Shown here in pieces: positions 2,716 through 12,858 of a stretch of DNA of 64,000 bases. The notes under the pieces are model-generated. The model saw only the letters and a list, made by a program, of their open reading frames with translations, was not told the origin of the DNA and did no database searches. Each line of letters starts with the position of its first letter. The first letter of the stretch is position 1. Source of the DNA: Trichodelitschia bisporula (taxonomy: Eukaryota); NCBI GenBank assembly GCA_010356995.1, contig ML996705.1:62001-126000 (forward strand). Reading direction: 5' to 3'. A program made the position numbers and the translations under genes.

Positions 2716-3682
2716 CTACACAGATAAACCCATAATCGCCTCATTCACCTCCGACGGTTCCACCTCATCGCCGTCCACTGCTAATGCCCCTGCACTCATA
2801 GTTGCTGCCAACCTGGTTGCCGATGGAACGGGCAACCTTGTCTGCATTGCGCTGAGATGAAGAATATGAGAAGTGCCATTGGCGCGGTTCGGACAGCCCG
2901 ATAGCCGGAACCGGGGAAATGGCGATAGATGACAGTGGTGGACGTCGAGCGTTGGGAATCGGTTGCAGAGTGCGTCGTAAACAAAGGCCAGCAAAGGTCA
3001 GCAGTGATGAAACCGTAGCAACCGACGACGTCCGGAAATTGAAGCGGGTGGAGACGGCAGAGTATATATCCGCACACAGAGGAAGGCCTCGAACCGCAAG
3101 AGCCGAGCTCCACTGCCTGGCTATTGAATCTCCGTGCCGTCTCCGCTTTTATTCCGCACGCCGCTCGAAAAACTCGCACGAGAGTACGCGCTTCTTGCCG
3201 TCTCTTTCTGCGGTCTGATTAATGGTGTCTGCCCAACGCGTCTGCACGTCGAATCCCGTCGTCTCGCGCCACTGGCCAGGTTACGCTAGCGGTTCAGCGT
3301 CCAGCATGCCGTAAGTTCGCAAGCCTCGCATCCTCGCAAACTTTGATCCTCTGTGTCCGACTGGTCCGGTAACCATGGCGGTCACTGAAATGCCGGCCGA
3401 GTGGGGCTCATGCCATTGGATGCGGGGTGGGGACTGGTGGGGTTCACGCCTGCAAGGTCTATCCAAGCTTATCGATAAGCAGCAGGCTGGCCTTTCCTGC
3501 ATCTTCACTGTACCACAGAAGGACTGGTACCCTGTCGCACGCCGTGCAGTGCCTGTACTAGCGTCCGAGCGCGGCCGACCGACGACGAAGGTCATCACGA
3601 GGAACCAGAACTTCGCTTCTCACTGCAGTAGCTCGCTCGACAGTCTCCACACTCACCACCACCACCACAACCCGTCCGCCCG

Positions 3683-3688
3683 TATAAA
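3683..3688 (+). promoter_or_regulatory. TATA box of INO1
   Basis: TATAAA about 330 nt upstream of the INO1 ATG, followed by a pyrimidine-rich leader. Confidence 0.6.
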
Positions 3689-3831
3689 GCTCCAGACCGC
3701 CGTTCCCGAGATCCTTCTGTCCCGTATCCGCCACTTCACCAGATTTTTGCCCTTCAACCGCATCTCACTACCGGCACTCCCCAACCTTCGACCTTATCTC
3801 ACTTCACTTGGGCCATTGCCCGGATCCCAAG

Positions 3832-3971
3832 ACGTTCTCCAATCTCCTTGTCTCGTAAGTTGCCATTGCTGTTGCAGAGGATGTTTCTAACCGTTCAGTA
3901 CGCATCACCCGTTCGCCGGCCGTCGCTCTTGCCCTTCAGGTGGAGCCTCGGAAGCTTTAAGAGCCCAGTAA
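3832..3971 (+). CDS. Spliced, ACG-initiated upstream ORF (31 aa) in the INO1 5' leader; candidate regulatory peptide
   Basis: caag-ACG at 3832. Intron 3855..3898 (GTAAGT...CTAAC...CAG). The spliced frame reads (M)FSNLLVSTHHPFAGRRSCPSGGASEALRAQ* and ends TAA 3969-3971. Confidence 0.7.
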
Positions 3972-4016
3972 AGAAGTCTCCCAGACACCAAACAACCAAC
4001 CCCCTCAATCCACACC

Positions 4017-5655
4017 ATGGCCCCTCACGCGGATGACAACGGTTTCTCTGCCAGCGCCTCGAGCGCCGCCAATGCCGACCTGTTCATCGTCGACTCGCCC
4101 AATGTCGTTTACACCGACGACGAGATCAAGACCAAGTACACGTACCGTACCACGGACGTGAAGCGGGATGCCTCCGGCAGGTTCGTTGCTAAGCCCAAGG
4201 AGACTCTCTATGACTTCAAGGTCGACCGCAAGGTCGGCAAGGTCGGCATGATGCTTGTCGGCTGGGGCGGCAACAACGGCACCACTGTCACCGCCGGCAT
4301 CATCGCCAACCGCCGCGGCCTCGTCTGGGAGACTAAGACGGGCAAGCACGAGCCCAACTACTACGGCTCTGTGCTCATGGGCTCCACCGTCAAGCTCGGC
4401 ACTGAGGTCGAGACGGGCAAGGATGTCAACATCCCTTTCAACCAGCTGCTCCCGATGGTGCACCCCAACGACCTCACCATTGGCGGCTGGGACATCAGCG
4501 GTCTGAACCTCGCAGAATCGATGGACCGTGCGTGCGTGCTCGAGCCGACCCTCAAGAACCTAGTGCGCAAGGAGATGGCTTCCCTCAAGCCGCTTCCCAG
4601 CATCTACTACCCCGACTTCATCGCCGCTAACCAGGAGGACCGCGCGGACAACCTGATTGCAGGCTCCAAGGCCAGCTGGGAGCATGTGGAGCAGATCCGC
4701 AAGGACATCCGCGAGTTCAAGGCGGACAACGCCCTCGACAAGGTCATCGTCCTCTGGACGGCCAACACCGAGCGTTACGCCGACATCATCGAGGGCGTCA
4801 ACGACACCGCCGAGAACCTGCTGCAGGCGATCAAGGCCGGTCATGAGGAGGTGTCCCCGTCGACCGTCTTTGCTGTTGCCTCGGTCCTTGAGGGCGCGCC
4901 CTTCATCAACGGCTCGCCGCAGAACACCTTCGTTCCCGGCGCCATCCAGCTCGCCGAGCAGCACAATTCCTTCATTGGCGGTGACGACTTCAAGTCGGGC
5001 CAGACGAAGATGAAGTCGGCTCTTGTCGACTTCCTGATCAGCGCCGGCATCAAGCTGACGTCGATTGCCAGCTACAACCATTTGGGGAACAACGACGGCA
5101 AGAACCTGAGCTCGCACAAGCAGTTCCGCTCCAAGGAGATCAGCAAGTCCAACGTCGTCGACGACATGGTGGCCGCCAACTCAGTGCTGTACAAGGAGGG
5201 CGAGCACCCCGATCACTGCGTTGTCATCAAGTACATGCCGGGTGTCGGTGACGACAAGCGTGCTCTTGACGAGTACTACGCTGAGATCTTCATGGGCGGT
5301 CACCAGACCATCAGCATCTTCAACGTGTGCGAGGACTCGCTGCTGGCGGCGCCGCTCATCATCGACCTGGTCCTGACGACCGAGATGATGACCCGCATTC
5401 AGTGGAAGGCTGGCGCCGAGGCGGACTACACCCACTTCCACAGCGTGCTGAGCGTGTTGAGCTTCATGCTCAAGGTGCGTTTATCACTCTTTTTCTGGTC
5501 TTCTAATGCTGACATATCAGGCTCCCCTCACGCCTCCTGGCACTCCCGTTGTCAACGCCCTGGCCAAGCAGCGCGCTGCGCTGACCAACATCTTCCGCGC
5601 GTGCGTTGGTCTTGAGCCGGAGTCGGACATGACTCTTGAGCACAAGCTCTTTTAG
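4017..5655 (+). CDS. INO1: myo-inositol-1-phosphate (inositol-3-phosphate) synthase
   Basis: Motifs [37 protein letters not shown]. Intron 5475..5520 restores the C-terminus [15 protein letters not shown]...LEHKLF*. Confidence 0.98.
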
Positions 5656-8063: not shown

Positions 8064-11000
8064 TCACCCCTCAACCTCAAACTCCGCCTTCCTCCCCCCC
8101 ATAAGCGCCAAAACCTCCCCCGGCGGCCCCACCGTAACCACCTTCCCATTATCCAAAAGCACAACCGCATCCGCCTCCCTAATCGTATCGAGGCGATGCG
8201 CCACAGTAACCACCGTATTCCCCCTAAACTCCTCCTTAATAACCTTCTGAATCCGGCCCTCAGTCTCAAGATCCATATTACTAGTCGCTTCGTCCAGGAC
8301 CAGCACACACCGTCCCCCCATCGCCCGTTTCCGCAGTAAAGCCCTCGCCATAGCCAGGAGCTGCTGCTCGCCATGACTCAGCGCATCGGGCTTAATCGCC
8401 TCGCCCTCAGCGTACCGCGTCTGCAAATCACCCAGCCCGACCGCGGCGAGCACTTCGCCGTACGCAGCGGGCGAACTCAGGCCATTCGGATCTAGATTGA
8501 ACGCTAGCGTCGCCTCGAATACCAGCGCGTCCTGCGGCAGGCAGATCAAGCGATCGCGCACCGTCTGCCGCGGCACAGTTGCTAGGTCGATCCCGTCGAT
8601 GAGGATGGCGCCGGAGGTGGGGTCGATGAGGCGCATGAGTGAGGCGAGGAGCGTGGATTTTCCGCTCCCCGTGCGCCCGCAGATGCCGATTTTCATACCC
8701 GCCTCCAGCGCGAAGGATACGCCGCGCAGCGCGGGCGTCCCGTCGGCGTACGCGAAGCCGAGGTCTTTGACGCTCAGCGCGCCGACGGGCCATTCCGGCC
8801 CGGGGTCGATGGGGTGTTCGGGCTCGGGCTCGGCGGGGGTGTGTTTTTCGAAGGCTTGCGTGCGGGCGACGCTGCCGAGGGAGGTTTCGGCTTCGGTCCA
8901 GGCTTGGATGAGCATGGTGAGGGCGAGGTTGAAGCCGAGGACGGAGGAGAGGGCGACACCGAGCGCCCCCGGGCTACTGTGGGTTGGGACGCAGAGCGCG
9001 AGGGCGACGAGGAGGACTGCGACGCCGGCGACGAGTAGGCCGAGGACGAGGGAGAGCCAGCGCTGGATGCAGTAGAGGAGGAAATAGGGGCGCTGGGAGT
9101 TGTTCAGGCGGCGGAGGGCGGCGGCGTCGAAGTGCGTTTGCCAGCCGAGGGCGCGGATTGTGGCGATGCCTTCTAGGGTTTCGGTGAAGTGTTGGTAGAG
9201 GGGCGTTTTGTGTTCTAGGTCTAGGAGACGGACTTGGCGGGAGGTGCGCAGGTAAAAGCGTTGGATCCAGTACAGGGCGAGGATTACGCCGGGGATGGAG
9301 ATGGCCATGAAGCTGCTGCCGGTGGCGATGAGGGCCATGGACATGATGCAGGTGGCGACTTGGAGGTAGACCATCATGCTGGACATGGGCAGGTTGAAGT
9401 CGACGAGGGTCATGTCTTGGCTGAAGCGGTTGAGCAGGATTGAGGAGTCGGTTGCTTCGAAGAAGGAGATGGGTGCTTTCATGGTTGCGCTGATGAGGAT
9501 TTGGTGCAGGTAGGATGCGGACTTGGGCAGCATGACGAGGAAGACTTCGCTGAGAAGAGTCAGTAGGGGCTTCAGTGAGGACGGGAGACTTACGCCATCG
9601 TTGCGATCTGGAACACAAAGGCGAGCACCACGAACATAGCGTAGATGCCCAGGAACTTGCCCAGCGAGGGGTTGGATACCCCCGTGTTCCACTGCAGCCA
9701 CAGTCCTGTACATTGTCAGCAGTGACCAAAAAGAGCGCGGGTTCAACATACTCTGGAAGTTGGTCGTGAATACCGTGATAGCCCCAAAGACAATGAGCAC
9801 AAGGGTGACGACAATGCCAAACGACTTCCCGTAGTATAGCCACACGCCAACATCTCCAGTCTGGCGCTTGATATTGTCGACATTCTCATCAAACATCGCC
9901 ATGTGCTCCTTCCCATCATCCTCTTCAAAGTCCTCAGGCTTCAGCGTATGTTCCGCGATAGGCGTGTCCGCGACATCCTCATCCTGCCCCTTCTTGATGT
10001 CCTCATTCTGGCTCGTCCAGTTCCCGGGCGGGCCAGTGTACGTCATGGAGCCCCTGGAATCCAGAACAACGATATTATCCGCCAAATGCAGAAAATTCGT
10101 AATATGCGTCGCCATCACCACCGTACACCCATGCCGCGCCACATACCCGTCTTTCCCAAGCAATCCCTGCGCAACATGCCTCTGCGTCTTCCGATCCAGA
10201 CTACTCAAAAAATCATCCAGCACCAGCAGCTCACACCGCGAATACAGCGCCCGCGCAAGCGCAACCCGGTGCTTCTGCCCACCGCTCAGCGTAATCCCGC
10301 GACTGCCGATGAGACTCAAGTCCTTGCGCGGCATTTGGGACAGATCGTATTCCAGCGCGCACAGGTGGATGACCGTGCGGTACCACACGCGGTCGAAGGT
10401 CCCGGCGCCGATGATGTTGTCCCGTAGTGTTGCATTGCGCAGCCAGGGCGCTTGGCCGCAGTAGCCGACGTACGGGGTCGCGATCCTGACGGTTCCGGAT
10501 TGGGGGTGTAACTCGCCGAGGAGGGTCTTTAGGAGAATGGACTTGCCGGAGCCGACGGGGCCGAGGATGACGGTTACTGAGCCCTTTTTTGCTGAGAACG
10601 AGATGGGCGTTTTCGGGCCCACGGGTACCTCAGGCTTCTTCTCGGCCTCGGACTCCGAGCCGCCCATTTCCTTTGAGATTGGTGCTTCTGATATGGCCGG
10701 CAGTTTTGTGCCTTCCGCCGCCGTGGGCTTTGTTGCATCGGTGGGACCCTTCTTCGCCTCCTTCCTGCTGAACCAAGCCTTCTTCTCGCCCTTCGTCTTT
10801 CCAGCGCCGCCCGGGAAACCAGCACCAGGAGGGAAACCAGAGAGGGTCTTTCCCGCAACCTTAGGCGGGTACGTCTTCGCCACAAGATCCACAACGGAGA
10901 GCGTCGCTGTAGGGATGTCATCCCCCGCCAAACTAGCCGACTTCTCGTTGGACGAGCCCGAGCGACGATCCTGATCCCCGGAGAACTCACGCCCATCCTG

Positions 11001-12858
11001 AAACCCCTTCGCAAGCAAGAAATTCTGCACACGCTTGATACACCCCGTCGCCGCCGCAACCTGCGGCAGCGTCTGCAGGAGCATCATACTCGGCGTGGTT
11101 AGCAAGGCGAGGATAGTAAGACTCGTAAACGCCTGCGCCGTTGTCAACGGCGGCGTCCCCCGAACCTTCGCCTCAATCGCAAACGCCGCAAACACAATCA
11201 AACTGCTCAGCAAATTCGGAATCGAGGATACCGCCCACGTCATAACCGTGAGTTTCCGAAACCGCATCGCCTGCTTAATCTCCGTAACCCGCTCCTGCTG
11301 CAGGAACATGCCCATATTCAGCGCGATCCCCGTAAGCTTGACACTCTTGATGCTGCGCAGCGCGGAACTAGTCACGCCCACGCGGTGCTGCACGGCGCGC
11401 ACCCAGCGCGCCTGGCTAGGGCCCATGCGCTTCGCGGTCTGCGATTGCAGAAAGAAGCAGAAGAAGGCGACGAGCGTGGGGGCGACGGCGGTGGCGCCGA
11501 GTTGCCGCCAGAGGAGCCAGATCCCTATGCCGATTTGCGTGAATTGGGCCCAGAGTTCGGAGGCCTGAACGAGGGATATGGCGATGCGGTCGATGTCGGT
11601 GCTCATCAGCGTCACAGCGGCGAGGTTGCCGTGATCCATGTCTGCGGAGAGCGCCTTGGTGTAGATTAGGGAGGCGGTGGCGCCGCGGAACATGGTGATC
11701 ATGCGGAAGACGTTGTAGTAGTACTTTGCCGTCGCGAGCTGGGCCCGTCAGCTTCATCACATCACAGCGGGATACATGAACCTACCGCAACACCCCCGTA
11801 AATCAGTGCCGCAGCGCCAATGAGCCCGTAAGCATGGTTCTTGTTCCGGAACCGCGCCGGCGTCTCAAGATACACGATCGCATCGGTAATAAGGAAGGTC
11901 TGCGCGTAGCTCAGCGCGATCATGCAGGCGCGGACGGGGACGGTGCGCAGGATGGCCCATTTGAGGCAGGATACGCCGGCGAAGACCATGGGGTAGGATT
12001 CTTTCGTTTTGTCTGCGGGGATCAGTGACAGCCCGAGCGGTTAGCTTACTTCACATACACTTCTCCCATGCGGCCTGCATCTGGTCGCGCAGCAGCTCGG
12101 AGTGCAGCCCATGGTCGAGCGTGTCGATGTCGTCGAGGCCGAGAATCTTCTTGTTCCCGAGGAAGAGGATGGGTGTGAGCCACCACATGAAGAGCCGGTT
12201 GAACGGGCCTGCCGTATCGGTTGGGCCGAGCGGATAATCGCTCGGCAGCAGATATGCGGTCTTGGGCCAGGAGTCAACGCAGAGGAGGATGAATTTGGCG
12301 GCGAGGCCGGCCGCCGTGACGGCCGCGATCTTGGGCACATAATGGCGGATATAGAGTGTGCGGACGAGGAGGACGTCGCCCGTGAGCGTCGAGAGCAGAT
12401 AGACGAAGGTCAGTAGACCGGGGCGCGTGGTGCGGCTGTGCTCAAAGGCGATAAGGCCCGTTAGAGCCAGCGCGGCTATTAATTCCAGGGCGCTGGTTGC
12501 GACGGCGACGTGGATGATTGGCTGCTTGGTCCAGAGGGCGAGCCTTGCGATTGAAAGGCCGATGACGATAACGGCGAGTCCCTAGATATTTAGCGCTGCA
12601 TCCAATCAAATGGTCCTAAGGGCTGAATCCTACTATCTTAAATGCATATATAGGGTGAGACCGCGTTTTGGTAGACGCACGGCGGAGCAACCACAGGCGA
12701 AGAGGGAGCAGGAGCAGGAACAGCGACGAGACGCCAATGCCGAAGATACTCTGCTCGAAGGTAACGGTAAAATCGAATTGATCACATTTGACCCCAGGGC
12801 CGAAGCTCCGGTCGGCGAGCACATCGCAGGATCGCGACGTACTAGAACTAGCAGCCAT
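8064..12858 (-). CDS. ABCC/MRP-type ABC transporter (TMD0-TMD1-NBD1-TMD2-NBD2)
   Basis: N-terminus DRSFGPGVKCDQFDFTVTFEQ. NBD1 has GPVGSGKS / LSGGQ / LLVLDD; NBD2 has GRTGSGKS / LSHGEQQL / VLVLDEATS. Introns 12633-12582, 12058-12013, 11785-11739, about 9751-9706 and about 9593-9550. Confidence 0.95.

Follow-up and report, generated by a model that had tools for sequence, protein, structure and literature searches.

Conserved-peptide upstream ORFs (CPuORFs) sense small molecules as varied as arginine, polyamines, sucrose and phosphocholine. The fungal arginine attenuator peptide (AAP) of arg-2/CPA1 has a conserved core followed by a less conserved C-terminal tail, and its end-product arrest takes place at the stop codon and is coupled to NMD. 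The upstream conserved coding region (uCC) of antizyme inhibitor and ODC mRNAs pauses ribosomes in a manner that depends on a C-terminal Pro-Pro-Trp and on polyamines and eIF5A. Non-AUG uORFs that report the balance of eIF1 and eIF5 are also known.

In PMC11066809, ascorbate is likewise among the small molecules sensed by CPuORFs, and the plant GGP/VTC2 gene (GDP-L-galactose phosphorylase) is described, citing Laing et al. 2015, as carrying an ACG-initiated conserved uORF for which ascorbate feedback is proposed. The uORF that we describe here, in the leader of the fungal INO1 gene, shares with this account the non-canonical ACG start, the conserved predicted peptide, the location in the 5′ leader of a gene whose enzyme is the first one dedicated to a small-molecule pathway, and the proposed end-product-dependent stalling with possible NMD. 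The two are set apart, by that description, in kingdom, pathway and peptide; the INO1 uORF is shorter, invariant in length and stop, split by a conserved intron, and known from sequence comparison, whereas for GGP reporter data are presented (PMC11066809). A second comparison is with cpc-1 of the Pezizomycotina, for which Ivanov et al. 2017 (PMC5487733) describe ACG, CUG and AUU codons conserved in position, with A at -3. INO1 resembles it in subphylum, in these start codons and the A at -3, and in the comparative logic by which the element is recognized.

The window, the whole 64-kb stretch of Trichodelitschia bisporula DNA that was analysed, contains an INO1 gene with the layout given in Table 1. 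The main ORF matches PF07994 (1.7e-133) and PF01658 (3.9e-35). Its 46-nt coding intron (5475-5520) is joined out in a contig of run X2, one of two sequencing runs, X1 and X2, used as transcript evidence, and the spliced product of 530 aa is exactly P0017, named by NCBI a putative inositol-3-phosphate synthase of T. bisporula. Upstream, an ACG opens a frame of 31 codons that is completed by splicing and closes before the main AUG. The ACG, the GTAAGT, CTAAC and CAG of the intron, the TAA, the 45-nt gap, the TATA box and the ATG at 4017 all lie, to the base, where the preliminary description of this locus had placed them. The branch-site-like CTAAC occupies 3887-3891, and the second exon encodes the core H-[HN]-P-[FY]-A-G-R-R-x-S-P-S-G.

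Table 1. Features of the INO1 locus, in window positions.
Feature	Position	Strand	Evidence
5′-extended leader, one RNA contig	3106..3831	+	X1 record 1
Proximal TATA box, TATAAAG	3683..3689	+	sequence
Small hairpin-forming element, core GGGC-CATT-GCCC (3810-3821)	3808..3823	+	MFE hairpin in window
uORF near-cognate start codon ACG; A at -3, T at +4 (CCCAAG-ACG-T)	3832..3834	+	
uORF exon 1: start codon, then six codons, then bases 1 and 2 of the split Ser codon; motif F-S-N-L-L	3832..3854	+	
Leader intron within the uORF, 44 nt, GTAAGT...CTAAC...CAG	3855..3898	+	joint 3854 to 3899, X1 and X2 contigs
uORF exon 2: third base of the Ser codon, 23 codons and TAA (3969-3971)	3899..3971	+	
AUG-free spacer, 45 nt, uORF stop to INO1 start	3972..4016	+	
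INO1 (myo-inositol-1-phosphate synthase) CDS	4017..5655 = 4017-5474 + 5521-5655	+	Pfam

The leader intron is removed from RNA, as had been predicted. In contigs of both X1 and X2, position 3854 is joined to 3899, with 44 nt skipped between GT and AG. The two runs come from a single sample of a single study, and their RNA nature is a guess; since three separate GT..AG joints are found, the contigs are taken to be cDNA-derived. With its GT..AG ends, its CTAAC branch-like motif and its removal at the RNA level, the element has the properties of a spliceosomal leader intron. The RNA-derived contigs span 3832-3971 minus this intron, and the uORF is separate from the main ORF. Because the contigs of both runs contain 3832, transcription begins upstream of the uORF start and not downstream of it. 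The X2 contig starts at 3802, a contig end and not a mapped transcription start.

A longer form, overlooked in the preliminary description, is represented by X1 record 1 (1352 nt), which aligns to 3300-3435, 3482-3854 and 3899-4547 and has 194 nt more preceding 3300. The start of this 5′-extended leader near 3106 presumes colinearity upstream of 3300; a TATATAT sequence lies shortly upstream of it, at 3063-3069. A second intron of 46 nt (3437-3482, GTGGGG..CAG) is spliced from this leader, which has six upstream ATGs, at 3222, 3306, 3375, 3390, 3410 and 3420. The claim that the spliced leader is free of AUG thus holds for transcripts from the proximal promoter and fails for the X1 contig reaching to about 3106. 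In the spliced 3700-4016 segment there is no ATG; unspliced, it has one, at 3881 within the intron, the sole ATG of the proximal leader. The extended form is one assembled contig from one sample, and the contig does not establish a single transcript; if it were a major isoform, its AUG uORFs would act ahead of the ACG uORF. A start some 700 nt 5′ of the proximal leader and six AUGs ahead of the main ORF would make it a candidate for comparison with the long undecoded transcript isoforms (LUTIs), which start distally, carry an extension rich in uAUGs, are poorly translated and repress the proximal promoter.

On the T. bisporula window alone, the uORF is no more than chance would give, a point that had escaped the preliminary description. 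When the spliced leader is shuffled 1000 times, a near-cognate ORF of at least 31 codons closing within the leader arises in 237 cases; in the actual sequence no stop interrupts the uORF frame from 3700 or earlier, and the leader is stop-poor in all three frames. The significance of the uORF comes from comparison with orthologous leaders, not from the window itself.

The comparison set consists of 32 INO1 loci from metagenomes, whose N-termini are 68-75% identical to that of the window's INO1. They were fetched with patterns from that N-terminus, and all begin MAPHA; being so retrieved, the sample is biased and is silent on yeasts, basidiomycetes and early-diverging Pezizomycotina. Going by which named INO1 proteins lie nearest, the loci look like Alternaria, Melanomma, Verruconis, Aspergillus, Hyaloscypha, Sarea, Podospora and Malbranchea, of several classes, these labels being nearest-match guesses among the 120 INO1 proteins listed for the window's enzyme. 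A complete uORF is present in 28 of the 32 loci, the remaining four are cut by contig ends, and the uORF is missing from none. The partial loci (L001, L021, L025 and L026) have 150, 58, 111 and 207 nt upstream, respectively, and the reachable 3′ part matches the uORF; the stop in L001 is TAG, and L026, read by hand, fits only if GTATCG, an unusual donor, is accepted together with an exon 1 that diverges from the others.

The architecture of the uORF is held within narrow bounds. Among 29 sequences, those of the 28 complete loci and the window, the homologous start codon is ACG in 23, CTG in four, ATT in one and ATG in one. Every non-AUG start has A at -3, so that a near-cognate codon in favourable context is conserved in 28 of 29. 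The single ATG start (L011) has T at -3, an in-frame TGA directly upstream and a spacer of 169 nt. All 26 intron-containing complete loci, and the window, have a GT donor exactly 23 nt past the first base of the start; the intron always interrupts the same Ser codon, its position kept and its length ranging from 44 to 319 nt. Two full-length, intron-less, mRNA-like contigs (L018 and L023) show the exact in-frame junction, with uninterrupted main ORFs of 537 and 536 aa. Of 21 distinct complete sequences, 19 have a uORF of 31 codons and two have one of 32; the stop is TAA in all 21. The last five or six residues of the uORF vary although the length stays at 31 codons. Apart from that of L011, the spacers of the distinct sequences (20 of 21) are 31-68 nt long. 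Spacer sequence is not conserved, and the frame of the uORF relative to the main ORF varies among loci. Since spacer length modulo 3 differs between loci and a stop is always present, the uORF does not extend Ino1 at its N-terminus. Averaged over pairs of sequences, identity is 0.68 in the uORF, 0.22 in the spacer, 0.19 in the intron and 0.32 in the region from -60 to -23. The exonic leaders contain one ATG in 4361 nt, which is the L011 start, versus 42 in 2030 nt of intron.

Selection was examined in the 19 distinct 31-codon sequences, leaving out the two of 32 codons. Out of 30 columns each, 24, 17 and 30 vary at codon positions 1, 2 and 3. In the uORF frame the pooled pN/pS is 0.44, versus 1.26 and 1.42 in the other two frames, which contain stops in 17 of 19 and 8 of 19 sequences. 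A codon model gives an omega of 0.23, with a log likelihood of -973.09 versus -1016.27 at omega = 1, a 2dlnL of 86. Loci L004 and L030 retain the split Ser as AG-C rather than TC-N. By these comparative measures the 'hidden' uORF is real and subject to purifying selection at the amino-acid level, and the alignments demonstrate such selection on the peptide, its start position, its length and its intron phase. Conservation of the peptide in orthologous leaders with dN/dS below 1, of the intron position, and of a near-cognate start at the homologous codon had been put forward as tests of the proposal, and each is borne out in this sample.

A further feature, missed in the preliminary description, is a small hairpin whose 3′ end is separated from the uORF start codon by about 9-10 nt. 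Each of 12 representative leaders folds into an MFE hairpin at the equivalent site, as do most of 20 distinct upstream sequences, with stems that vary by lineage (GGGC/GCCC, AGAC/GUCU, GGGUC/GACCC, GGGCUU/GAGCCC and GAUCAC/GUGRUC). On energy alone, in only six of the 12 leaders do at most 10 of 200 shuffles fold as well. RNAalifold predicts no consensus pairs 5′ of the start on the MAFFT alignment, because the hairpins are out of register there. The foldings are suggestive of a conserved hairpin near the uORF start.

In the window and the databases searched, the peptide is hardly to be found outside INO1 leaders. There is no second copy of the motif within the 64-kb window, no Pfam match, and against the PDB only a chance match (E = 1.7). 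A phmmer search with the peptide of 1.84 billion representative proteins gave 14 matches at E <= 0.001, four of which (P0004, P0005, P0007 and P0015) are ORF calls ending in or running through the uORF. The other ten are read as low-complexity or repeat sequences, judged from many matched stretches and from one inspected sequence (P0013). A word-index search returned P0004, P0005 and P0007 only, two of which NCBI names as hypothetical proteins, of Alternaria dauci and Plenodomus biglobosus. The preliminary description had mentioned, as unverified, earlier reports of a conserved near-cognate uORF on fungal INO1/inl mRNAs; a full-text search of the literature outside subscription journals found no such report, and no publication that describes uORFs ahead of the INO1, inl or inositol-phosphate synthase reading frame. 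The terms 'inositol', 'inl' and 'NCU06666' are absent from the text of Ivanov et al. 2017 (PMC5487733) and 10 supplementary files.

The reading that we favour, with confidence somewhat above the midpoint, is that the INO1 leader element is a genuine CPuORF of the Pezizomycotina, acting in cis through an inositol-responsive arrest. Its parts differ in strength. It is almost certainly a real, translated, conserved uORF; the peptide probably represses INO1 in cis; and inositol or a derivative may be the effector, at slightly less than an even chance. Since the peptide is kept across distant filamentous fungi, the uORF very likely serves to control inositol synthesis at the level of translation. 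We infer its translation, and the repression of INO1, from selection. We likewise infer that the peptide acts in cis and arrests ribosomes at termination, that queuing and NMD ensue, and what the effector is; for stalling by inositol or a derivative, queuing and NMD we draw on analogy together with the fixed length, the invariant TAA and the short AUG-free spacer. The constant length is the ground for proposing queuing, and the 31 codons, the TAA in 21 of 21 sequences, the spacers of 31-68 nt and the AUG-poor leaders fit termination arrest combined with leaky scanning.

The proposed mechanism is as follows. Most scanning ribosomes would bypass the ACG, a near-cognate codon whose context is good for fungi, and would begin translation at the AUG of INO1. 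A minority initiating at the ACG would make the 31-residue peptide from the spliced leader, and the peptide core (residues about 2-26), inside the exit tunnel, would bring the ribosome to a halt on the invariant TAA or close to it. The arrested ribosome would obstruct later scanning subunits, and a queue may put a 40S subunit on the ACG, strengthening the block. INO1 translation would drop, and the mRNA would possibly be exposed to NMD. The likeliest effector would be the end product, inositol or a close derivative, giving feedback at the first committed step. Counting against such an arrest, the residues adjoining the stop show little conservation, in contrast to the pause motifs that some arrest peptides have, and the peptide contains no polyproline or other recognizable known stalling motif.

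AAP and uCC also invite comparison. Like AAP, the INO1 element is a peptide that a fungal uORF encodes ahead of a biosynthetic gene, with a conserved core and a more variable C-terminal tail; AAP differs in its AUG start and its response to arginine, and is not known to be split by an intron. The INO1 peptide is set apart from the AAP family by its position upstream of INO1 and the absence of a Pfam or PDB match rather than by direct alignment. With uCC it shares a near-cognate start in good context, whose use could be raised by a queue behind a paused ribosome, a conserved peptide and, as proposed, metabolite feedback. A C-terminal Pro-Pro-Trp pause motif occurs in none of 16 distinct INO1 uORF peptides, and the C-terminus is variable; with no Pro-Pro-Trp and with the last five or six residues variable, the INO1 uORF is not a member of uCC, although it may work similarly.

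It is tempting to extend the proposal to a complete translational inositol sensor made of an arrest peptide, a 31-codon ruler and the hairpin, with feedback as the ancestral main control, but we regard this extension as doubtful. Here the peptide would arrest the ribosome at the TAA when inositol or a derivative is abundant. Queued ribosomes are spaced about 10 codons each, and with codon 31 in the P site a three-ribosome queue would place a 40S subunit on the near-cognate start. A queue reaching the start would amount to positive feedback on uORF initiation, and the hairpin, about 10 nt 5′ of the start, would re-form at the mRNA exit and help to retain the 40S subunit. The intron, 23 nt into the uORF, would set an exon-junction complex over the start codon on new mRNA, if the usual loading distance holds. 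Translational feedback, and not the Opi1-Ino2/Ino4 circuit of yeast, would then be the ancestral main control in filamentous ascomycetes.

Among the alternatives, the one that survives best, though we consider it rather unlikely, is that the peptide arrests or slows ribosomes in cis in response to something other than inositol: a phospholipid precursor, glucose-6-phosphate, polyamines and eIF5A, or how initiation or termination factors stand in general. The same structural evidence supports it, and nothing in the data singles out inositol among metabolites. However, the usual logic of such uORFs is end-product feedback at the first committed step, and the peptide is without a polyproline stretch of the type tied to eIF5A and polyamines. 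Less probable still is that the uORF damps translation constitutively, or senses start-codon stringency, and sets the share of ribosomes reaching the INO1 AUG without sensing a metabolite. The near-cognate start in its conserved good context, the short spacer and the AUG-free leader would all suit such a start-site device; yet it would need neither peptide, length nor stop to be conserved, and here omega is 0.23, with 31 codons and TAA maintained. We think it very improbable that the product is a free micropeptide acting in trans, with Ino1 or lipid metabolism as conceivable targets and its leader position merely providing co-expression. Amino-acid conservation by itself does not tell cis from trans, but a near-cognate start yields little product; an unchanging length and stop, together with a distance to the main AUG that stays short, suggest a role in cis; and the peptide has no second copy within the 64-kb window, no Pfam or PDB family and, among the 1.84 billion representatives, a presence only at the C-terminus of four unnamed ORF calls. 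A chance open frame, or conservation of RNA or DNA (a structure or binding site) rather than of coding, has next to no probability, for the shuffles and stop-poor frames that speak for it in the window alone are contradicted by the dominance of third-position variation, the omega of 0.23 with its likelihood-ratio statistic, off-frame pN/pS above 1, the off-frame stops, a split Ser that switches codon family, and a start that varies solely among ATG and its one-base neighbours.

In budding yeast, INO1 serves as the textbook example of how lipid metabolism is controlled at transcription; to our knowledge, the control of inositol synthesis in filamentous fungi is far less clear. The system is easily tested, since Neurospora cell-free toeprinting and Aspergillus and Neurospora reporters already exist. 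Natural experiments are at hand in the start swaps among ACG, CUG, AUU and AUG, including one AUG variant with a long spacer, and the invariant uORF length bears directly on the ribosome-queuing model. The editing of such uORFs is described in PMC11066809 as a proven route to higher pathway output, e.g., with GGP in plants. If inositol is the effector of the proposed CPuORF, a new small molecule would join the short list of those sensed via the ribosome exit tunnel. The common ancestor of the Pezizomycotina is placed no less than 320 million years back in PMC5487733, and a non-AUG, intron-split coding uORF conserved across several classes of this group would point to a translational feedback layer that is invisible to gene annotation.

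The leader of the INO1 gene carries a uORF (upstream open reading frame) that is spliced, starts at a near-cognate codon and conserves its peptide, and that lies on the INO1 mRNA. The main ORF encodes myo-inositol-1-phosphate synthase (Pfam PF07994 at 1.7e-133 and PF01658 at 3.9e-35), and its 530-aa product is identical to the NCBI "putative inositol-3-phosphate synthase" of the dothideomycete Trichodelitschia bisporula. The positions that the preliminary description assigned to the TATA box, the ACG, the intron, the TAA and the main ATG are all exact on re-reading of the sequence. Its statement that the spliced leader has no AUG is likewise borne out, with zero ATGs in spliced 3700–4016; the sole ATG of the unspliced segment, at 3881, is intronic. 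If the intron were retained, a 51-codon frame from ATG 3881 (3881–4036, + strand) would run over the INO1 start in another frame. Stops are few in all leader frames, and that of the uORF stays open from 3700 at the latest. When the spliced leader was shuffled 1000 times, 237 of the shuffled versions held a near-cognate ORF that was 31 codons or longer, had a purine at −3 and closed before the main ATG. Judged on this single sequence, the uORF is not more than chance.

Features of the INO1 locus in the window
Feature	Position	Strand	Remarks
Second leader intron, 46 nt	3437–3482	+	spliced out of the X1 contig; weak donor GTGGGG, ..CAG
TATA box TATAAAG	3683	+	sequence
Small predicted hairpin	3808–3823	+	8–15 nt 5′ of the uORF start; same place in loci L002–L031
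uORF start ACG	3832	+	A at −3
Leader intron, 44 nt	3855–3898	+	GTAAGT, CTAAC, CAG
uORF stop TAA	3969–3971	+	sequence
INO1 main ATG	4017	+	sequence
INO1 CDS	4017–5474 plus 5521–5655	+	spliced product 530 aa

The RNA evidence consists of contigs from two runs, X1 and X2, of one sample in one study, the run kind being only guessed as RNA. The joint of 3854 to 3899 (GT..AG), expected from the proposed leader intron, is present in contigs of both runs. The joint of the CDS intron, also GT..AG, is found in the X2 contig, and a third GT..AG joint, that of the upstream 46-nt intron, in the X1 contig. Three such joints in the contigs mark the material as derived from cDNA, in which the leader intron of 44 nt has been removed. 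The X2 contig begins at 3802 and the X1 contig extends further upstream, so that the ACG is inside both. All three introns (3437–3482, 3855–3898 and 5475–5520, + strand) are very short, at 46, 44 and 46 nt.

To assemble orthologous leaders, metagenome contigs were scanned with residues 1–228 of the enzyme, giving 32 loci with 68–75% identity; the patterns used for retrieval were taken from the N-terminus encoded in the window itself, and the sample is thus of fungi matching those patterns. The complete element is present in the leaders of 28 of the 32 loci. The remaining four have just 58–207 nt upstream, and there the matching 3′ part is visible as far as the contig reaches; one of these four, L026, is readable as complete only by hand and with an unusual donor. 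Among the 120 proteins listed, the nearest named enzymes are from Alternaria (99.5, 95 and 92%), Melanomma, Paraconiothyrium/Bimuria, Verruconis, Aspergillus (83%), Hyaloscypha (82%) and Sarea (83%), as well as Podospora (86%) and Malbranchea (79%), the contigs of the last two carrying just the 3′ part of the uORF. These nearest-hit guesses suggest that the loci span Dothideomycetes, Eurotiomycetes, Leotiomycetes, Sordariomycetes and a Sarea-like lineage.

The near-cognate start and the intron position proposed for the window are conserved. The homologous start codon is ACG in 23 of 29 sequences, CTG in four, ATT in one and ATG in one, with A at −3, within CA[AC]N, wherever the start is not AUG. 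Only in the Hyaloscypha-like locus L011 is it ATG; the base at −3 there is T, a TGA in the same frame immediately precedes the start, and the spacer is 169 nt as compared with 31–68 nt in the others. In this locus (L011:2102–2500, + strand), TATAAAG is found about 10 nt past the uORF stop, so the main transcript there might begin downstream of the uORF. The distance from the start codon's first base to the GT donor is exactly 23 nt, and the donor splits a Ser codon that is kept as AG|C in L004 and L030 and as TC|N elsewhere; the introns vary in length between 44 and 319 nt. Two mRNA-like contigs (L018 and L023), whose main ORFs run without interruption for 537 and 536 aa, lack the intron and have the predicted in-frame junction. 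Counting the window, the uORF occurs in 21 different nucleotide versions, which encode 16 different peptides. The uORF has 31 codons in 19 of these versions and 32 in two, and TAA is the stop in all 21; that of the partial L001 is TAG. The exonic leaders contain one ATG in 4361 nt, which is the L011 start itself, and the introns contain 42 in 2030 nt. Because ATGs are confined to the intron in the window and in the orthologous loci, intron retention would silence translation of the main ORF.

Conservation at the peptide level is also found. With the two 32-codon versions excluded, the 19 versions of 31 codons have 24, 17 and 30 variable columns of 30 at codon positions 1, 2 and 3, and a pooled pN/pS of 0.44 in frame; the other two frames, where it is 1.26 and 1.42, have stops in 17 and 8 of the 19 sequences. 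Under a codon model omega comes to 0.23, and fixing it at 1 lowers the log-likelihood from −973.09 to at best −1016.27. Averaged over pairs, the uORF has an identity of 0.68; the spacer has 0.22, the intron 0.19 and the −60 to −23 region 0.32. Since the frame of the conserved 5′ block relative to the uORF varies among loci, peptide conservation starts at the near-cognate codon. From these comparisons, it is very probable that the uORF is real, translated and conserved.

The hairpin just 5′ of the uORF start is in the predicted fold of all 12 representative leaders. The dothideomycete-like stem is GGGC-loop-GCCC, with pairing-keeping variants AGAC/GUCU, GGGUC/GACCC and GGGCUU/GAGCCC; Aspergillus-, Hyaloscypha- and Sarea-like loci have another stem at that place, GAUCAC/GUGRUC. 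Ten or fewer of 200 shuffles fold equally well in only six of the 12 leaders, and RNAalifold on a MAFFT alignment of the region gave no consensus structure; we therefore rate the case for a real, position-conserved element as suggestive. The predicted hairpin may keep a 40S in place at the weak start codon, or it may be a protein-binding site.

The X1 contig (1352 nt) matches 3300–3435, 3482–3854 and 3899–4547 and begins 194 nt before 3300, that is, near 3106 if colinear, about 40 nt past TATATAT at 3063–3069 (+ strand). Its extension has six upstream ATGs, and the frame from ATG 3410 reaches 4036, crossing the main start. This form, seen in one contig, could be a distal-promoter, poorly translated isoform resembling a long undecoded transcript isoform, or an upstream non-coding transcript overlapping the INO1 leader. 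Elsewhere in the window, a 1212-aa ORF (8064–11702, − strand) looks, by eye, like an ABC-type transporter in translation.

The uORF peptide has no relative in Pfam or PDB. Among 1.84 billion representative proteins, the only ones to contain it, terminally or internally, are four ORF calls without a name. Two of these are NCBI hypothetical proteins, P0004 and P0005, from Alternaria dauci (94 aa) and Plenodomus biglobosus (118 aa), which end in the spliced uORF peptide and are evidently spurious small genes built by annotation pipelines across the leader intron.

How might the uORF act? The arginine attenuator peptide of fungi arrests ribosomes at termination, and for antizyme inhibitor a queue has been proposed to place a 40S on a near-cognate start. 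The INO1 uORF resembles both in logic. The criterion for the upstream conserved coding region of antizyme inhibitor is Pro-Pro-Trp, which the INO1 uORF peptides lack. Most scanning subunits would leak past the weak near-cognate start, which would account for the selection against AUG in the exonic leader. Initiating ribosomes would make the peptide, its conserved core being inside the exit tunnel once the stop is reached. A fixed number of codons from core to an invariant TAA, in spite of a variable tail, would be expected if arrest takes place at termination. Held up 31–68 nt short of the main AUG, a ribosome would stand in the way of scanning subunits, and a queue behind it could set a 40S on the ACG, since ribosomes in a queue are spaced by about 10 codons and 31 codons equal three such spacings plus the start codon. 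Action in cis through the peptide is likely. Inositol, or a derivative, as effector in end-product feedback is the most economical guess by analogy, and a tentative one.

The closest analogue is the conserved, ACG-started uORF of plant GDP-L-galactose phosphorylase, as described in PMC11066809. No report of an INO1-leader uORF was found in the openly accessible full-text literature or in the searched portions of Ivanov et al. 2017 (PMC5487733) and its supplementary files. Of the interpretation in the preliminary description, the structural half is strongly supported by sequence comparison, and the inositol-sensing half is a reasonable hypothesis. The INO1 uORF joins the non-AUG uORFs with conserved peptides as a new case, in a classic metabolic gene.
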